Notes under the pieces: model-generated
The model's database searches: none
What the model was told of the DNA's origin: nothing
What the model saw: the letters and a program-made list of their open reading frames with translations, nothing else
DNA from: Eledone cirrhosa
Lineage: Eukaryota
Length of the DNA: 64,000 nt
Direction of reading: 5' to 3'
Assembly: GCA_964016885.1 (NCBI GenBank)
Contig: OZ024766.1
Span: 18,910,001 to 18,974,000 of the forward strand
Program-made: the position numbers and the translations under genes
In this document: piece by piece, positions 5,621 to 53,074 of the stretch
Numbering within the stretch: the first letter of the stretch is position 1
Layout of the letters: every line of letters begins with the position of its first letter

Positions 5621-5676
5621 ACTGCTATATATATTTCGATGATAGCCATTGAATGGCTATGACCTCATCAGGCAGT
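5621..5676 (-). ncRNA. Type-I hammerhead ribozyme motif (PLE/retrozyme-like), family H1
   Basis: Minus strand: actgc-CTGATGA-ggtc atagccat tca atggctat catc-GAAA-tatata-TA^gcagt. Stem I is actgc/gcagt, stem III is palindromic, and AATAAA follows just downstream. Confidence 0.75.
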
Positions 5677-5739
5677 TAGTCAGTTCTTAGATATGCCAGC
5701 TCTGTGTTTATAGTGTTGATGGTATCAGTTCCTTGGGAC

Positions 5740-20619: not shown

Positions 20620-20672
20620 GTTTAGACAGACAGACACAACTGATCAAGGTTAACAATGGAACGCCCACTTAC

Positions 20673-23600
20673 TTGTTGAACAGGTTCAGTCCAATTCTGT
20701 ACAGCCTCTTGCGCTCCTTGTCCCCGATCCTCGACGTCACGTGCTGGTCCGGGGTGACGCTGATCCGGATCTTCCGCTGGTAGCTGATGCTGTTCTCGCT
20801 ACTCCCGCCGATGCTCACGTTCTCCGAACTCACGTTGTCCGAGCTCGGGCTGCTCGAGCACTGGCCGTCGACGCTCTCCGGCTCGCTCGTCTCCGAGATG
20901 TTGCTCATCCGCTTCACCTCCCCGGCGCCGCCGCCGCCGCCGCCGACCACCGCGCTGCCCAGCCCCCCCACAACTCCCCCGACGGGCGCCACGCCGCCGG
21001 GAGCGACCGCCACGACGCCGCCGCCGCCGCCCTTGTTCATCATCGCCGCCGCGCAGCCGCCCATCACGCCGACGCCCCCCGCGGCGGCCGCGGCCGCCAC
21101 CGCCGCCACCGTCGGCGCGGACGGCGCGCCCGACGACGCGCCGCCGATCCCACCAACAACGCCACCGCCAACGCCGCTCTTCCGCTTCCAGATCGGAGAC
21201 GCCTCGGGGGCGCCGCCGCCGCCGCCCCCTCCTCCACCGCCGCCACCACCACTGCCACACCGGTGGTGGTGGTGCGAGTGGTGGTGGTGGTGGTGTTGGT
21301 GGTGTTGCTGCTGCTGCTTGCCACTCCCGCCGGCCGCCGCGTTCGTGGCGGCGCCGCCGGCGGCGAGCTGCGGCGGGGGCGGCGGCGGCACGCTCCCCGT
21401 CGTCACGCCGCCGCCGCCTCCCCGTGATTTCCCTTTCGTGTTCGTGTAGAACTTTATCGTCGGCTCCTCCGCCGCCGCGTTGCCCAGCAACGAGCCCCTC
21501 CGGTCCCCGAGGCCCGTGTCCTCCGGGGACGCCAGGTCCACCTTGATTTGAACCTCAGACGACGACGGCTGCTGCTGCTGCTGCCGCGGTGACGACGACG
21601 CCGTCGCCGTCACCGTTGCCGTCGTCGTCGTGGAAACGGCGGGAGGGTCCAACTCCATGGAGGAGAGGGGCGAGAGGCCGGCCGCCGACGACGAGCCGCC
21701 CGGCGGCCTCTGATGGTGGTGGTGGTGGTGGTGCCCCGCCGCCGCCAACGACCCAGTCGCAACGACCCCGCCGCCGCCGGCGCTGTCCTGGATGCTGCCG
21801 TCGCTGTGCACGCTGTCGCTGTGGAAACTGTCGCTAAGGATGTCAGTCTCTTTGCTCTCGAGGAGATTCTCGAAGTCGAGGCTGTGCAGGTCGACGGCGC
21901 TCTCCACGGGGGTCGCCTGGGGGGAGTCGCTGGCGCTACTGTCGTTCAGCTCCGGGTAGGAGTTGCGGTTGTTGTTCGGCTCCTGTGTCGCAGCGACGCC
22001 GCCGCCGCCGCCGCCAGGGGTCGCCGTTGTTGTTGTTGTCGTCACGGCCCCCGCTCCGCCGCCGCCGACGATCGTCACCGACGACGACGACGACGACGAC
22101 ACGGATCCCCCCTGGCACACTGCCGCGGCAGGGGCGGCGTTCTGTCGACGGCTGTTACTGCTGCCCGTCACACCGCAGCAAGTGGCGGCGGCCGGGGAGC
22201 CGCTGCTCCCGCCGACGCCCGTCTGCTGCAGCTGCGCTTTGCCGCTGTAGTTACCTCCCTTCTCCGCCGTGCCGCTCTTCTCTCCACCGCCGCCGCTGCT
22301 GTTATCACCGAGGCCCTTCGCCGACGGCCCCCGCCTCTCGTACTCCGCCTCGCCGCCCGCCTCCTCCTCCTCCTCTTCTTCTTCTTCCTCCTCCTCCTCT
22401 TCTTCCTCTTCCTCCATCACGTTCTCACTCAGGTCAATTTCCGCCGCCCTCTCCAGCCTCCTCTTCTCCTTCCTCAGCATCTGCTGCTGCTGCTGATGCT
22501 GCTGCGCCGTGCGCCACAGACGCTCCTCAGCCTTCAGCGACGCCGCCGACGACAACGCCGACGACGTCGTCGCGTCCAGCGTCTGCTGGTGGTGCAACCG
22601 GTTGTCCAGGTTCTTCCGGGCCTCGATCTCCGCGATCCGCTTCCTCACGCTCTCCGACTTCTCCTGCTCCAGCAGCAACAGCTTCTGCTGCTTCGCCGAC
22701 ACCACCGTGCCTCCGCCTCCCAGCGCCAGGGACGGCGCCACCCCCTCGCAGCCAGCTGCGACGAGCGACACCTTCCCTCCCGCGACGGCGGACGTCGCCG
22801 CCGCCAACGACGACAACGCCGCTCCGGTCCCGACGCCGCCGGCCACGATCCCGCACCCACCGCCGCCACCGCCACCAGTCAGGGCGCCGGCCATCGCCAT
22901 CGCGGCCACCGTCGCCATCGACGTCGCCGCCGCGCCGCCGGACTGCTGCTGCTGATGCTGGTGGTGGTGTTGCGTCATCATGTCGCAGCTGATCCTGTCC
23001 GTCCACACCGTGTTGCTGCGGCCCAGCTCCGACAGCCGCTTCGAGAGCCGGCGCTCGCCGACGGAGTTGCGCAGCTTCTCGAAGTTCTTGTTCATGCAGT
23101 GCTTGCGAAACGCCCGCTGGATGACCCGCGCCGCCCTCCGCGCCCTTATCGTGCCGCCGTACTTCCTCTCCAGCATCTCCAGCTGCTTCTCCTGCAGGTC
23201 TTGCGACAGCTCGTACGAGCTGGAGTGCACCCGCGACCTCTTGATCAGCTCATCGTCCGTGCGCTTGAACGATCGCTGCCTCTGCACCTGCTGTCGCTGC
23301 GCCTGGCTGCACGCTCCGCCCGTCACCGACATCAGTCCGGCCGCGCCGCCCAGTCCGCCTCCACCGCCAGTCAACGAGTTCTGGCTGGTGAGTTTCGGAC
23401 GGCCACCTCCTCCGCCGCCTCCTCCGCCGCCTCCTCCTAAACTGCCATTCGAAGACGAAGAGGACACGACCCCCACCACCGAACCAAGAGGCGCGGTGTT
23501 GCTGCAACTGTTGCTGGTTGTGCTGGTGGTGGTGGTGGTGGTGGTGGTGTGGCCAGCGCTGTTTGGCCCGCTCGAGATTTTCGTATTGCCGATGATGGAA

Positions 23601-23906
23601 TTGGTGGTGGTGTTGGTGTTGTTGTTGGTGGTGGTGTTGGTGTTGTTGTTGTTGTTGGTGGTGGTGTTGGTGGTGGTGGTGATGGTGGCAATGGTGGTGG
23701 TGGTGGTGGTGACAGAAGCTACGCTGTTCAGGCTAATTTTGCCGCTGCCTCCACCACCACCACCACCCAGTCCTGGCGGCAGGGGTGGTACTGTTGTTGT
23801 TGTTGTCGACGGCGGCGGTGTAGTGTTGTTAGCAGTGGTGGTGGTGGTCGTGTTTGGATTCGGTTTCTTGCGTGGAATGTCCTCATCCAATCGGCTACTT
23901 GGAACA
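20673..23906 (-). CDS. IQSEC: Large internal coding exon (3234 bp, phase 2-2) of an IQ motif and Sec7 domain Arf-GEF (IQSEC/BRAG/schizo family)
   Basis: Conserved IKRSR...[24 protein letters not shown]-like motif [24 protein letters not shown], and Sec7 start [14 protein letters not shown]. Acceptor ttctcttgtgttttccAG (AG at 23908-23907); donor AA|GTAAGT (20672-20667). The ORF-track 'Met' start and TAA stop lie in introns. Confidence 0.93.
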
Positions 23907-23959
23907 CTGGAAAACACAAGAGAAAAAGAAAAAATATATATATATATATATATATATAT

Positions 23960-24131
23960 ACAAATGACGTAGGACAGAAGAAAGGAAAGGCACAGAAACA
24001 AAGAAAGGAATCCCCAGTCACTGAAGAGGTCACAGAGTGTGTGACGAAAGGACTATGACTATATATAAACAACTATCTGGTTGTGGAACCAACCAACCAA
24101 CCAGAAATTTATAAATTTGCAGATTTGTACA
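23960..24131 (+). mobile_element. Short hammerhead-bearing element (PLE pLTR/retrozyme-like), family H2 copy 1
   Basis: Near-identical copy at 25610-25778 and a diverged copy at 27390-27502. Flanked by a ~45-bp direct duplication ending in (AT)n. Confidence 0.65.
24016..24060 (+). ncRNA. Minimal type-I hammerhead motif, family H2
   Basis: agtca-CTGAAGA-g-gtcaca gagtg tgtgac-GAAA-ggac-TA^tgact. Confidence 0.7.
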
Positions 24132-25033: not shown

Positions 25034-25093
25034 TTCCATTTACCAGTGGTTTCTTAAAAGCAAAAGGATTTGCTTTCAATCCTCAGAATGAAA
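25034..25093 (-). ncRNA. Type-I hammerhead ribozyme, near-perfect fold (family H3), sense to the IQSEC pre-mRNA
   Basis: Minus strand: tttcatt-CTGAGGA-ttgaaagcaaa tcct tttgcttttaa-GAAA-ccactgg-TA^aatggaa. Stem I 7 bp, stem II 11 bp, GUA cleavage triplet. Confidence 0.8.
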
Positions 25094-25362
25094 AAATCCT
25101 GGTCTGTTTATTGAATATGGATTTTAAAAAACAAAAATGCAATCTATATGAAAGTGAGGCTGGAGAAGGGAGAAGGAAAGGAAAAATAAAATAAAACTAC
25201 ACATGCAAACACACACACAAAAAAACACAAAAGCATACTTACACGCACATACATATATACATATGTATAAATGTACGCATACATATATACATATACACAT
25301 ATATATATATAAAAAAAACGTACACCTACACACACATACACATATATACACACATATACATT

Positions 25363-25394
<32 letters not shown>

Positions 25395-25664
25395 CACATA
25401 TACACACACTCACACATGTGTGTATACAAGCGTACACATACACAAACAGCCATACACACACACATATATATACATATACATACATTCACACAAACATACA
25501 ACATACACATACATGAATGCACTCCTCTACATATTCACACACGCAAATAAATATAAGAAAAAAATATATAAATTTATATTAAAAAATTATATATATATAT
25601 ATATATATACAAATGGCATAGGACAGTAGAAAGGAAAGGCACAGAAACAAAGAAAGGAATCCCC

Positions 25665-25709
25665 AGTCACTGAAGAGGTCACAGAGTGTGTGACGAAAGG
25701 ACTATGACT
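25665..25709 (+). ncRNA. Minimal type-I hammerhead motif, family H2 copy 2
   Basis: Same core as 24016-24060, within the duplicated segment 25610-25778. Confidence 0.7.
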
Positions 25710-25789
25710 ATATATAAACAACTATCTGGTTGTGGAACCAACCAACCAACCAGAAATTTATAAATTTGCAGATTTGTAATTTTATAAAT

Positions 25790-27415: not shown

Positions 27416-27456
27416 AGTCACTGAGGAGGTCACAATGTTTTACGAAAGCTTTGACA
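27416..27456 (+). ncRNA. Degenerate hammerhead motif, family H2 diverged copy
   Basis: agtca-CTGAGGA-ggtcacaatgttttac-GAAA-gc-TT^tgac. Stem III is palindromic (aaagcttt) and stem II is weak. Confidence 0.5.
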
Positions 27457-28094
27457 ATATATAAACAGCCATTTGGTTATTGAACCAACCAACCGGAAAT
27501 TTATCTATCTATGTATTACTAAAACTCTGTGATTGCTTGCTTGATTGTCTGTAATGTAATACAGCCAAAAGGGGGCATAATAGGGAAATACTTTGAAAGG
27601 GAGTTGACCCGGAAATGGAAATACAAATGGAATAAAACAAGTTTCACGTAAACAGAGAGACAGACAGATGGAGAAAGATAGTGGTTGTGAGAGAGTAGAT
27701 TGAAAGAGGGCCATAGTGAGAGGGAGAGAGAGGAGGAGAGAGAGAGAGAGAGAGGAGAGGGAGAGAGAGAGGGAGAGAGAGAGGGAGAGAGAGGAGGCGA
27801 GAGAGAGAGAGAGAGAGAAAGGAGGCAAGCGAGAGAGAGAGAAAGGAGGCGAGAGAGAGAGAGGAGGAGAGAGAAAGAGAGGAGGAGAGAGAAAGAGAGG
27901 AGGAGAGAGAAAGAGAGGAGGAGAGAGAAAGAGAGGAGGAGAGAGAGAGAAAGCTGTAAAAATTATTTTTAAGTGAACACGATTTTAAAAAATATTTTTA
28001 AACGAACCTAACAAAAATACACCCCGTCCCACTACCCCCACCCCTTCCAATGTAAAGTTATGTTGGTACCACAAGATCCAGTCCTAAATAAATG

Positions 28095-28383: not shown

Positions 28384-28521
28384 TCATTATTTCTGAAGAC
28401 AGCATATATATGTGTAGGTATGTATATTCCCTCTGATAGTTTGTAAAATTTTTACATAGATCTATATGATATACATACCAACACACACATATATATCTTA
28501 GAAACGATCGTAAAATGATGA
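28384..28521 (+). ncRNA. Type-I hammerhead motif with a ~100-nt extended stem II (family H4)
   Basis: tcattattt-CTGAAGA-[long arm pairing atatatatgtgt..ggtatgtatat with atatacatacc..acacatatatat]-GAAA-cgatcg-TA^aaatgatga. Stem I 9 bp, stem III palindromic; the base of stem II is imperfect. Confidence 0.65.
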
Positions 28522-28703: not shown

Positions 28704-28974
28704 TATAAAGTAAAACATGTCCATAGAATCATTTGATAATATATATACATCATTTCTTCTCCCAATTAGCATAATTAACCAGACAAAAAAAATCAATTAG
28801 ACCAGGCTATAAGATTAAAAGGCACCTATGAAGAAACAGTAAATAAATAAATTATAGCAGCTTCTTCACGGCCAACAGCTATAGAATATTTACCCAACAT
28901 TTCAACAGCCCGTGGAAATTAATTAAATATGCAGTCAACCATACACAATTAGGTATAAAATATATATATATAAG

Positions 28975-29145
28975 ATCAAAAGATAGTTAAAAGAGTTCCA
29001 AGTATTTTATAAAATACATGGAACTCTTTTAACCATCTTTTGATATTTTTATATTATTTATACTCGAGTCCTATAAACTGTGGAGTGCTACTTATCTGAT
29101 ATTTGCATTGCTTTATTGTTGCTACAATAAAACTCACCTCTTACA
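28975..29145 (+). mobile_element. Family H5 element copy starting at the hammerhead cleavage site, preceded by an inverted duplication
   Basis: 29009-29145 is homologous to 38938-39072. 28975-29044 is a 35-bp-arm palindrome. Confidence 0.7.
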
Positions 29146-29171
29146 TTATATATATATATATATATATATAT

Positions 29172-29660: not shown

Positions 29661-29671
29661 ATATATATATA

Positions 29672-29940
29672 TTTCTACAGTTGAGTAAACTGGAGCAATG
29701 TGAAATAAAGTGTTTCCTTGAGCAAGACACTTTATTTCACATTGTTCCAGTTTACTCAGCTGTAGAAATGAGATGATAGGGAGTGGGGTCCCTATCATTC
29801 CACTGCAAAGTGGACGTGGAGGGGCCACGGCATAAAAGCACCCAGCCCACACTGTAAAGTGGTAGTGGAGGTGCCACGGCAAAAAAGCACCCAGCCCACA
29901 CTGTAAAGTGGTAGTGGAGGTGCCACAGCAAAAAAGCACG
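29672..29940 (+). mobile_element. Truncated family A SINE with a small 5' inversion
   Basis: CORE-like body plus 49-bp units; 29672-29713 is the inverted body segment. Confidence 0.7.
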
Positions 29941-33382: not shown

Positions 33383-33432
33383 CTGAAGAAGTCACAGCCA
33401 ATGATGGCTGTCACCGAAAGATATATAGCAGT
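33383..33432 (+). ncRNA. Hammerhead motif, family H1 (5' stem I strand truncated)
   Basis: CTGAAGA-agtc acagcca atga tggctgt cacc-GAAA-gatata-TA^gcagt; homologous to 5621-5676. Confidence 0.55.
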
Positions 33433-33502
33433 ATATCTATAATTTATAATAAACGAAGCCAAATTTTACATATTTTACTTAATTATTATATATGTATATA
33501 TA

Positions 33503-33842
33503 TCATCATGATTTCATTTTACGTCCGCTTTTTCCCTGCTTGCAAGGGTGGGACGGGAACTGATTCTGGCTTGATTTCTACAGCTGGATGCCCTTCCTAA
33601 CACCAACCTCATTTACAGTGAGTGCTGGGTGCTTTTTTGCCGTGGCACCTCCACGACCACTTTACAGTGGAATGATAGGGACCCCAGTCCCTATCATCTC
33701 ATTTCTACAGCTGAGTAAACTGGAGCAATGTGAAATAAAGTGTCTTGCTCAAGGAAACAACACATCACCCGGCCTGAGAATTGAACTCTCAACCTTTCGA
33801 TTGCAAGCCCAATGCTCTAACCACTAAGCCATGTGCCTCCAT
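33503..33842 (-). mobile_element. Full-length family A SINE with a single 49-bp unit
   Basis: Reverse complement of the 24261-24806 structure. Confidence 0.85.
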
Positions 33843-34047
33843 ATATATATAATAATAATAAATTTGAAGACTAAAATCCAAAGAGGGCTCGATAAGGATA
33901 AATATATATCAAATATATAAGAACTGTAGAGCAAATATTATTTACTTCTGCGTTCACAGATTGATTTTTTTTAGTTTCGAAAGATCCCATTACGGGTGAA
34001 AGCAGTAATTCTTTGGTTAAACTTTAATCTGTTATTTTAATATATAT

Positions 34048-37121: not shown

Positions 37122-38255
37122 TATACACCCCAGAAATTGATCCAGATGTCACCTTGGATACATTAAGTAGGAAAACAATTAATTACTTACAACACTAAAT
37201 GTACTAATATACTAATTAGTACATACTAATATATACATATAATGTCAATATCAGTTAATACAGTAGTTAGATATGTGTGTGTATATATATATGTGTGTGT
37301 GTGTGTGTATATATGTGTGTGTATATATATATCTGTGTGTGTGTGTGTATATATGTGTGTGTATATATATATGTGTGTGTGTGTGTGTATATATATGTGT
37401 GTGTATATATATATCTGTGTGTGTGTATATATATATGTGTGTGTGTGTATATATATGTGTGTGTATATATATGTGTGTGTGTGTATATATGTGTGTATAT
37501 ATATATATGTGTGTGTGTATATATATATGTGTGTGTGTGTGTATATATATGTGTGTGTGTGTGTATATATGTCTGTGTGTGTGTATATATATGTGTGTGT
37601 ATATATATGTCTGTGTGTGTATATATATGTGTGTGTATATATATATATGTGTGTGTGTGTATATATATGTATGTGTGTGTGTATATATATGTATGTGTGT
37701 GTGTATATATATGTATATGTATATAAATGTGTATATGTATGTATATATGTATATATATATGTGTATATGTATGTATATATAAATGTGTATATATATGTAT
37801 ATATAAATGTATATATGTATATATTAATATGTATATGTATGTATATATGTATATATAAATGTGTATATGTATATATGTATATATAAATGTGTATATGTAT
37901 GAATATATGTATATATAAGTGTGTATATGTATGTATATATATATAAATGTGTAAATATATGTATATATAAATGTGGATATGTATATATATATATATATAT
38001 GTGTGTATATGTATCTATATATGTATATATACATGGGTATATGTATAAATGTGTATATGTATGTATATATGTATATATAAATGTGTATATGTATGTATAT
38101 ATGTATATATAAATGTGTATATGTATGTATATATGTATATATAAATGTGTATATGTATATATGTATATATAAATGTGTATATGTATGTATATATGTATAT
38201 ATAAATGTGTATATGTATGTATATATATATATATATAAATGTGTATATGTATGTG

Positions 38256-38428
38256 CAATGATAGGGACCCCAGTCCCTATCATCTCATTTCTACAGCTGA
38301 GTAAACTGGAGCAATGTGAAATAAAGTGTATTGCTCAAGGAAACAACACATCACCCGGTCTGAGAATTAAACTCACAACCTTTCGATTGCAAGGCCAATG
38401 CTCTAACCACTAAGCCATGGGCCTCCAT
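38256..38428 (-). mobile_element. Family A SINE head and CORE-like body
   Basis: Reverse complement of 24261-24430. Confidence 0.8.
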
Positions 38429-38439
38429 ATATATATATA

Positions 38440-38803: not shown

Positions 38804-38874
38804 ATATATATATATATGTTGATTTAAAACTGCACTATCCACAAGTGTTTTTTAGCCTTCATATCATGTCCTCC

Positions 38875-38945
38875 TGTTTTATCTGATGAAAACACAAATA
38901 TTATTGCATGATGATATTTGTTTTTGAAATGCGCATAATAAAATA
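38875..38945 (+). ncRNA. Type-I hammerhead ribozyme, family H5
   Basis: tgttttat-CTGATGA-aaacacaaatattattgcatgatgatatttgttttt-GAAA-tgcgca-TA^ataaaata. Stem III is palindromic (atgcgcat). Confidence 0.8.
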
Positions 38946-39104
38946 CATGGAACTCCTTTAACCATCTTCTGTTCTTATATATTATGTATACTCCAGTCCT
39001 ACAAACTGTAGAGTGCTTCTTATCCGATATCTGCATTGCTTTATTGTACTACAATAAAACTCACCTCCTACATATATATATATATATAGGATATATATAT
39101 AGAG

Positions 39105-45677: not shown

Positions 45678-46162
45678 TTCATCATCATCATTTTATGTCC
45701 CCTTTTCCCTGCTTGCAAGGGTGGGACGGGAACTAATTCTGGCTTGATTTCTACAGCTGGATGCCCTTCCTAACACCAACCTCATTTACAGTGAGTGCTG
45801 GGTGCTTCTTTGCTGTGGCACCTCCACGACCACTTTGCAGTGAGTGCTGGGTGCTTTTTTGCCGTGGCACCTCCACGACCACTTTACAGTGAGTGCTGGG
45901 TGCTTTTTTGCCGTGGCACCTCTATGACCACTTTACAGTGAGTGCTGGGTGCCTTTTTGCCGTGGCACCTCCACGACCACTTTACAGTGGAATGATAGGG
46001 ACCCCAGTCCCTATCATCTCATTTCTACAGCTGAGTAAACTGGAGCAATGTGAAATAAAGTGTCTTGCTCAAGGAAACAACACATCACCCGGTCTGAGAA
46101 TTGAACTCACAACCTTTCGATTGCAAGCCCAATGCTCTAACCACTAAGCCATGTGCCTCCAT
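45678..46162 (-). mobile_element. Full-length family A SINE with 4 internal 49-bp units
   Basis: Head, CORE-like body, array and tail on the minus strand. Confidence 0.85.
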
Positions 46163-52875: not shown

Positions 52876-52943
52876 CATTTTTTTTTTACACAAACACACA
52901 AACACCCATACATACATATATATATATATACATATATATATAT

Positions 52944-53030
52944 ATGTAGGAGGTGAGTTTTATTGTAGTACAATAAAGCAATGCAGATATCGGATAAGAA
53001 GCACTCTACAGTTTGTAGGACTGGAGTATA
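52944..53030 (-). mobile_element. Family H5 element distal fragment
   Basis: Reverse complement of 38986-39072. Confidence 0.7.
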
Positions 53031-53074
53031 AATAATATACAGAGAGAGAGAGAGAGAGAGAAAGAAAGAGAGAG

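Follow-up and report, generated by a model that had tools for sequence, protein, structure and literature searches.

Insertions of Penelope-like elements (PLEs) form pseudo-LTRs in which copies meet head to head at their 5' ends, and the described junctions include a 15-bp overlap and palindromes of 18 and 38 bp (PMC3846280, PMC8557442). Antisense self-priming has been proposed for the palindromes at inverted Penelope junctions (PMC3846280). In vitro, the Penelope-like PAc protein cleaves and extends both target strands and uses two internal start sites; uncut RNA was its main substrate, and no RNA-seq reads were reported to end at the hammerhead site (PMC11167929). In R2, which carries an HDV-like ribozyme, cleavage sets the genomic 5' junction and second strands are primed by chance microhomology (PMC3774820). 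Both head-to-head pseudo-LTRs with palindromes and ribozyme-defined 5' junctions in R2 are already published (PMC3846280, PMC8557442, PMC3774820). Our literature search, which reached only a minority of the subscription papers, found no report of PLE junctions mapped to a hammerhead cut.

The locus described here lies in a window of 64,000 nt from Eledone cirrhosa (the whole stretch that was analysed). The window is rich in microsatellites, with 45,460 of its 64,000 bases masked as tandem repeats and 18,540 unmasked, and SINE- and LINE-like pieces and several short hammerhead-bearing fragments are set between TA runs. Three copies of one family, H5, concern us, one with a ribozyme, one at the palindrome and a third elsewhere:

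38815..39073, + strand: ribozyme-bearing H5 family copy, between TA runs
38875..38945, + strand: type I hammerhead fold with a palindromic helix III, cut predicted after 38937
28954..28972: left (TA)n target flank; TA microhomology blurs its border with the left arm
28966..29010, - strand: left (short) arm, an inverted family copy equivalent to 38938-38982 (88.9% over 45 nt)
29009..29010: central AT, common to both arms and equal to the first two bases past the predicted cut
29009..29146, + strand: right (long) arm, equivalent to 38938-39073, with no ribozyme core and with the 3' extension (tail)
29147..29171: right (TA)n target flank
52942..53039, - strand: third family copy (99% over 98 nt)

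The sequence-only reading had placed a self-cleaving ribozyme in the first of these copies, and we find a complete type I hammerhead fold there. The motifs CUGANGA, GAAA and NUH occur in order with helices I to III: the core CTGATGA at 38883-38889, GAAA at 38926-38929 and the ATA triplet at 38935-38937, together with a stem I of 8 pairs (38875-38882 with 38938-38945), a stem II at 38890-38925 in which 15 of 16 positions pair around a single C-U mismatch, and a short, palindromic helix III at 38930-38935. Helix III is predicted to be unfavourable in the monomer (-6.9 versus -9.8 kcal/mol without it), and a dimer duplex of 8 bp is predicted at -10.5 kcal/mol. Local and gathering-threshold Rfam scans reported no hammerhead family at 38875-38945 (the gathering scan gave one tRNA-like match, and the E-value scan was dominated by microRNA matches to TA repeats), and the 83-nt fold was no more stable than its shuffles (z -1.46). 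Because Rfam is silent and the folding energy unremarkable, we base the hammerhead call on the core pattern and on variation within the family. Of the ten stem II variants listed, nine preserve the pairing by themselves, and the remaining one, 38925C, is complementary to 38890G. Within CTGATGA, the 40 of 73 variant rows listed contain a single change, at the free position 38887, and across 38918-39037 no variant of at least 1% lies in GAAA or the triplet, while loop III has three such variants, two of them from no more than 5 read starts. Since stem II variants keep their pairing and GAAA and the triplet are free of variants at this level, the ribozyme looks to be under selection, as far as family variation can tell. 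Six of the ten listed stem II variants (38890-38916, + strand) are A>G, possibly tolerated wobble pairs or copied RNA editing. In its topology, its long helix II and its small palindromic helix III, predicted as a dimer, the fold resembles the type I hammerheads of PLEs, and it differs from them in its A-U pair at 10.1-11.1, in having no extra base before helix II and in a helix II of 16 bp with a C-U mismatch (PMC4209133). The short palindromic helix III of the PLE minimal hammerhead is thus present in H5, and the unpaired base after position 9 and the G10.1-C11.1 pair are absent from it; G and C variants at 10.1-11.1 do occur in the family.

Other hammerhead-like sequences are scattered through the window. 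Type I patterns lie at 5626-5680 (-), 25041-25095 (-), 24013-24060 (+), 25662-25709 (+), approximately 27416-27478 (+) and 33383-33436 (+); these extra patterns span at least 3 other families, the stretches 24009-24086 and 25658-25735 being identical and 33383-33436 being a degenerate relative of the 5671 motif. A further hammerhead-like core, recognized by eye and missed by the pattern search, sits at 28385-28515 (+); its stem II is about 100 nt long, the 146-nt segment folds at z -4.82, and TA runs enclose the 313-bp piece that contains it. An inverted repeat at 29671-29769 (46-bp arms, 7-nt spacer) consists of pieces of a tRNA-like SINE family that is also found at 33670-33862, 38253-38437 and 45990-46162. 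A GC-rich open frame of 1127 codons at 20669-24052 (-) is probably a host exon, with a weak IQ-motif match below the Pfam cut-off (E 6e-5).

The copy at 29009 had been said to start at the base after the predicted cut and to lack the ribozyme, and alignment of 29009-29146 with 38938-39073 (88.4% over 138 nt, 16 differences) agrees: homology to the H5 copy ends exactly at the cut, and no ribozyme core is present. The palindrome reported ahead of it at 28975-29044 is there as described, loopless and with 35-bp arms and 2 mismatches; what needs amending is that the left arm aligns to the family over 45 nt (28966-29010, equivalent to 38982-38938, the last 7 nt being TA-like and uninformative) and that the two arms share their centre. 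It scores 27, whereas the best palindromes in 20 shuffles of the unmasked bases (18,540) reach 6-10. With AT (29009-29010) belonging to both arms, the position of the arm ends relative to the cut is known to within 2 nt: a 2-bp overlap would put both at 38938, a blunt joint would put both at 38939, and the third possibility is one at 38938 and the other at 38940. Both flanks are (TA)n, which would mask any target-site duplication. To the left, the palindrome adjoins a 250-bp single-copy piece (28708-28960) that has TA runs on both sides and no long open frame. The left arm's 38947T also occurs as a variant within the family (31 read starts, 44 contigs); 38963T in the left arm and 38974A in the right are not among the listed family variants, and the right arm has approximately 9-10 unlisted differences in its 138 nt. 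These differences do not separate one template from two. The third copy (53039-52942) has the same 3' end as the others; its 5' end, joined to (CT)n, is the equivalent of 38978, 40 nt past the hammerhead cut, and so lies elsewhere than the palindrome centre.

An inverted, 5'-truncated copy joined at its 5' end, as seen here, is a feature of insertions of endonuclease-bearing PLEs. Like the pseudo-LTRs of endonuclease-bearing PLEs, the locus has a 5' head-to-head junction with an overlap or palindrome and a one-sided extension; unlike them, its long arm reaches 83-93 nt past the short-arm ends rather than 30-40, no reverse transcriptase or endonuclease ORF is attached to the window copies, and the junction falls on a predicted hammerhead cut, to which the published descriptions do not tie their junctions (PMC3846280, PMC8557442). 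Insertion into (TA)n together with a hammerhead recalls the Hydra clade of PLEs, (TA)n not being exclusive to that clade (PMC8557442). No ORF for a telomerase-like reverse transcriptase or a GIY-YIG endonuclease adjoins any of the three copies, and neither six-frame translation of 9 inter-microsatellite segments nor Pfam searches with 4 ORFs gave a PLE protein. Because no such gene is attached, we only infer that the H5 family belongs to the PLEs. With PAc the locus would share two internal starts of reverse transcription, both strands cut and extended, AT-rich targets and, as the family data suggest, the dominance of uncut RNA; it differs from PAc, for which no RNA ends at the hammerhead site were reported, in having one or two genomic ends on the predicted cut (PMC11167929). 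With R2 it shares the principle of a ribozyme-set 5' junction; the ribozyme and the element class are different, and what is the rule in R2 is here a class of at most 1-2% (PMC3774820). Metazoan non-LTR retrozymes are likewise short, AT-rich, apparently non-coding and equipped with a type I hammerhead, and differ in their tandem units and go-back joints (PMC7229834, bioRxiv 10.64898/2026.07.22.740005). Tandem copies are absent from the window, and none of the five joints listed from reads goes back, a comparison that units much longer than a read would escape; a circular or tandem 255-nt unit is accordingly unsupported. A 25-letter pattern had 0 matches in metagenome contigs.

If cut RNA were often copied, 5' breakpoints would be expected to pile up at the cut across the family, and this spike was the check that the sequence-only reading put forward. 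We turned to six public runs, three of them contig sets in which 14-21% of 14 sampled words were present and three of them RAD-seq runs that share the species label, and aligned five of the six to the family, X3 being left out. The runs may come from the species of the window; in X4, 1344 of 5012 aligned reads were at least 99% like the H5 copy. RAD runs cover a subset of loci at uneven depth, and six loose ends per run were listed, which makes the figures below bounds rather than a histogram. The spike did not appear. In none of four runs does depth binned at 9 nt increase from one side of the cut to the other. With 4-nt bins in X4, the bin that begins at 38938 has a depth of 562 on one mate class against 538 before it, with a flat course afterwards, and the other class goes from 2061 to 2069, together a step of about 32 of 2631 reads (1.2%; 2.2% without a single pile of 1142 reads) next to neighbouring steps of +21, +26, +26 and +15. 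Position 38938 is not among the best 24 of 269 or the best 12 of 72 loose-end rows, so the loose ends there number fewer than 49 reads in X4 and no more than 2 of 76 partly aligned contigs in X2 or 4 of 129 in X1. Given that 38938 shows no depth step beyond those of its neighbours and no leading loose end, most copies that cover the cut site keep the ribozyme. The 1142-1540 read ends that pile up at 38928 probably reflect fixed-length RAD reads and were set aside, as were loose ends at 38842, 38877, 38907, 38917-38918 and 38968 and, in contigs, at 38978, which their consensus letters mark as likely divergent subfamilies.

The reads do contain inverted joints, and all five of those listed connect opposite strands:

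38820/38938: certainly head-to-head; 3 reads from 2 starts, in X4 only
38820/38978: certainly head-to-head; 78, 90 and 112 reads, 3 contigs
38820/39041: certainly head-to-head; 98 reads from one start, 1 contig
38892/39053: opposite-strand
38910/39003: opposite-strand

Position 38820 is the edge of the reference, and the partner's exact end is resolved only for the 39041 join, where the loose end matches the reverse complement of 38815-38828. The joint at 38938 is absent from X5, X6 and X1 and was possibly favoured by 3-nt microhomology. One exact match at 38938 among 7-11 ends has a chance of 3-5%, or 9-14% for a match within 1 nt, before allowing for microhomology or for many hidden loose ends. 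The other listed junctions are asymmetric, unlike the centre at 29009-29010; none of the listed joints is self-palindromic, no multi-copy symmetric junction occurs in the 5 runs, and the junction at 28975-29044 is itself in no read set, the runs appearing to sample only part of the genome. Because the H5 copy and the three head-to-head joints all end there, the data point to a recurrent family 5' end near 38815-38820, about 120 nt upstream of the cut, which may be the transcription start. With this commoner 5' end, and with most copies keeping the ribozyme, cut RNA would be only a minor template in the family. Ends also recur on the 3' side, where copies run into TA repeats at 38980, 38982 and 38990 (103, 64 and 227 reads in X4; 4, 3 and 7 contigs in X2), and the outer end of the palindrome's left arm, 38982, is one of them. 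The two 3' end classes, 38980-38990 and 39073, are 83-93 nt apart. Hairpins are predicted between them at 38999-39011 and 39040-39058 (z -1.31 for the whole segment). The ends at 38980-38990 could also have arisen as microsatellites grew or as later insertions hit the TATATA within the element.

We propose that 28966-29146 is one Penelope-type insertion primed from two ends, with both cDNAs copied off hammerhead-cut RNA, a reading that we hold with about as much confidence as doubt. In such a model a Penelope-type enzyme would prime cDNA from each end of a cut (TA)n target, the first cDNA starting at the outer start point (39073) and the second at the inner one (38980-38990), and both would run off an RNA whose 5' end was made by the hammerhead, stopping at 38938. 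The cDNA 3' ends, each a self-complementary AT, would then pair with one another, each priming second-strand synthesis on the other cDNA, and the product would be a palindrome that has no loop and whose arms are unequal, one long and one short. Two-end priming, cleavage and the identity of the enzyme are all steps that we infer. Twin priming in L1 is an analogue of two-end priming; among the titles listed by our literature search on twin priming, none concerned PLEs. A physical RNA end is favoured because the insertion used the 2-bp centre at the cut rather than an 8-bp palindromic centre (at 38932) only 6 nt upstream, which would be a better annealing site on uncut templates, and because a second locus joins at 38938. 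Counting against a cut template are the missing spike, the neighbouring steps as large as that at the cut, the third window copy that starts elsewhere, the choice of the window copy post hoc from many hammerhead families and the dominance of uncut RNA with PAc in vitro (PMC11167929). The idea of a cut-RNA template in a Penelope-type insertion, already present in the sequence-only reading, is plausible with the balance close to level. That there is a small real class of Penelope-type insertions copied from hammerhead-cut RNA, to which this locus belongs with both ends, seems to us somewhat less than an even prospect.

The closest competitor keeps the two primed ends and does away with the cut: a head-to-head insertion from uncut RNA, in which truncated or trimmed cDNAs were joined at an arbitrary AT that coincides with the cut site by chance. 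We regard this as possible and clearly short of probable. It would account for the absence of a family-wide spike at 38938, and other junction ends fall at 38820, 38892, 38910, 38978, 39003, 39041 and 39053. A self-complementary centre is available at 68 of 252 positions in the element, the one observed being the 2-bp centre at the cut, and the many hammerhead families per window leave room for coincidence. On the other hand, symmetry at a junction calls for a palindromic site or a physical end, and the stronger 8-bp palindrome close by went unused; a second locus, too, is joined at 38938.

A fold-back, in which the end of a single cDNA or RNA doubled over and primed the copying of 35-45 nt, was the mechanism suggested from the sequence at the outset, and the reading of palindromes at Penelope inverted junctions as self-priming lends it precedent (PMC3846280). 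The arms do share three differences from the H5 copy (38956, 38969 and 38972), as copying of one arm from the other would leave them, but at two of these sites the shared base is the one most family copies have, and at the third it is a common variant, which makes the sharing uninformative. For a cDNA that stops at 38938, self-priming would leave 3 nt or more in a loop (the nearest registers leave 3 or 7 nt, and longer registers lie more than 30 nt away), and since the palindrome is loopless, plain fold-back does not give this junction. The short arm, moreover, ends at a recurrent family end (38980-38982). The fold-back is thus unsupported, and we consider it improbable; two-end priming is favoured over self-priming because the junction is loopless and has two fixed outer ends.

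It is less probable still that a longer head-to-head insertion lost its centre, including both ribozymes, in a later deletion. Apparently private changes in both arms suggest that the insertion may be old enough for this, but the deletion would have to be exactly symmetric and fall on the cut site. As a rule, central deletions make palindromes less perfect, not more. That the palindrome belongs as a constant component to an unrelated MITE (the alternative named earlier as the refutation of a retrocopy) or an assembly artefact we reject as barely credible, despite the junction's absence from the read sets, since both arms are family sequence, no multi-copy unit with terminal inverted repeats is seen in the five runs (the inverted repeat being central and one-sided), and the arms disagree at several positions, which a read folded back by artefact would not show.

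The two-end-primed insertion from cut RNA, as a reading of one selected locus and a thinly supported second one with no spike across the family, is a testable lead and not a demonstration. The back-to-back copies at the cut likely record one insertion copied from already-cut RNA, in a judgement that could almost equally go the other way. An excess of junctions at the cut site, if demonstrated, would amount to genomic evidence for ribozyme cleavage in the germ line and for occasional retrotransposition of the cut product. Genomes would then, if this is true, hold a countable record of hammerhead cleavage in vivo, and a histogram of junctions would measure how often cut RNA is used.
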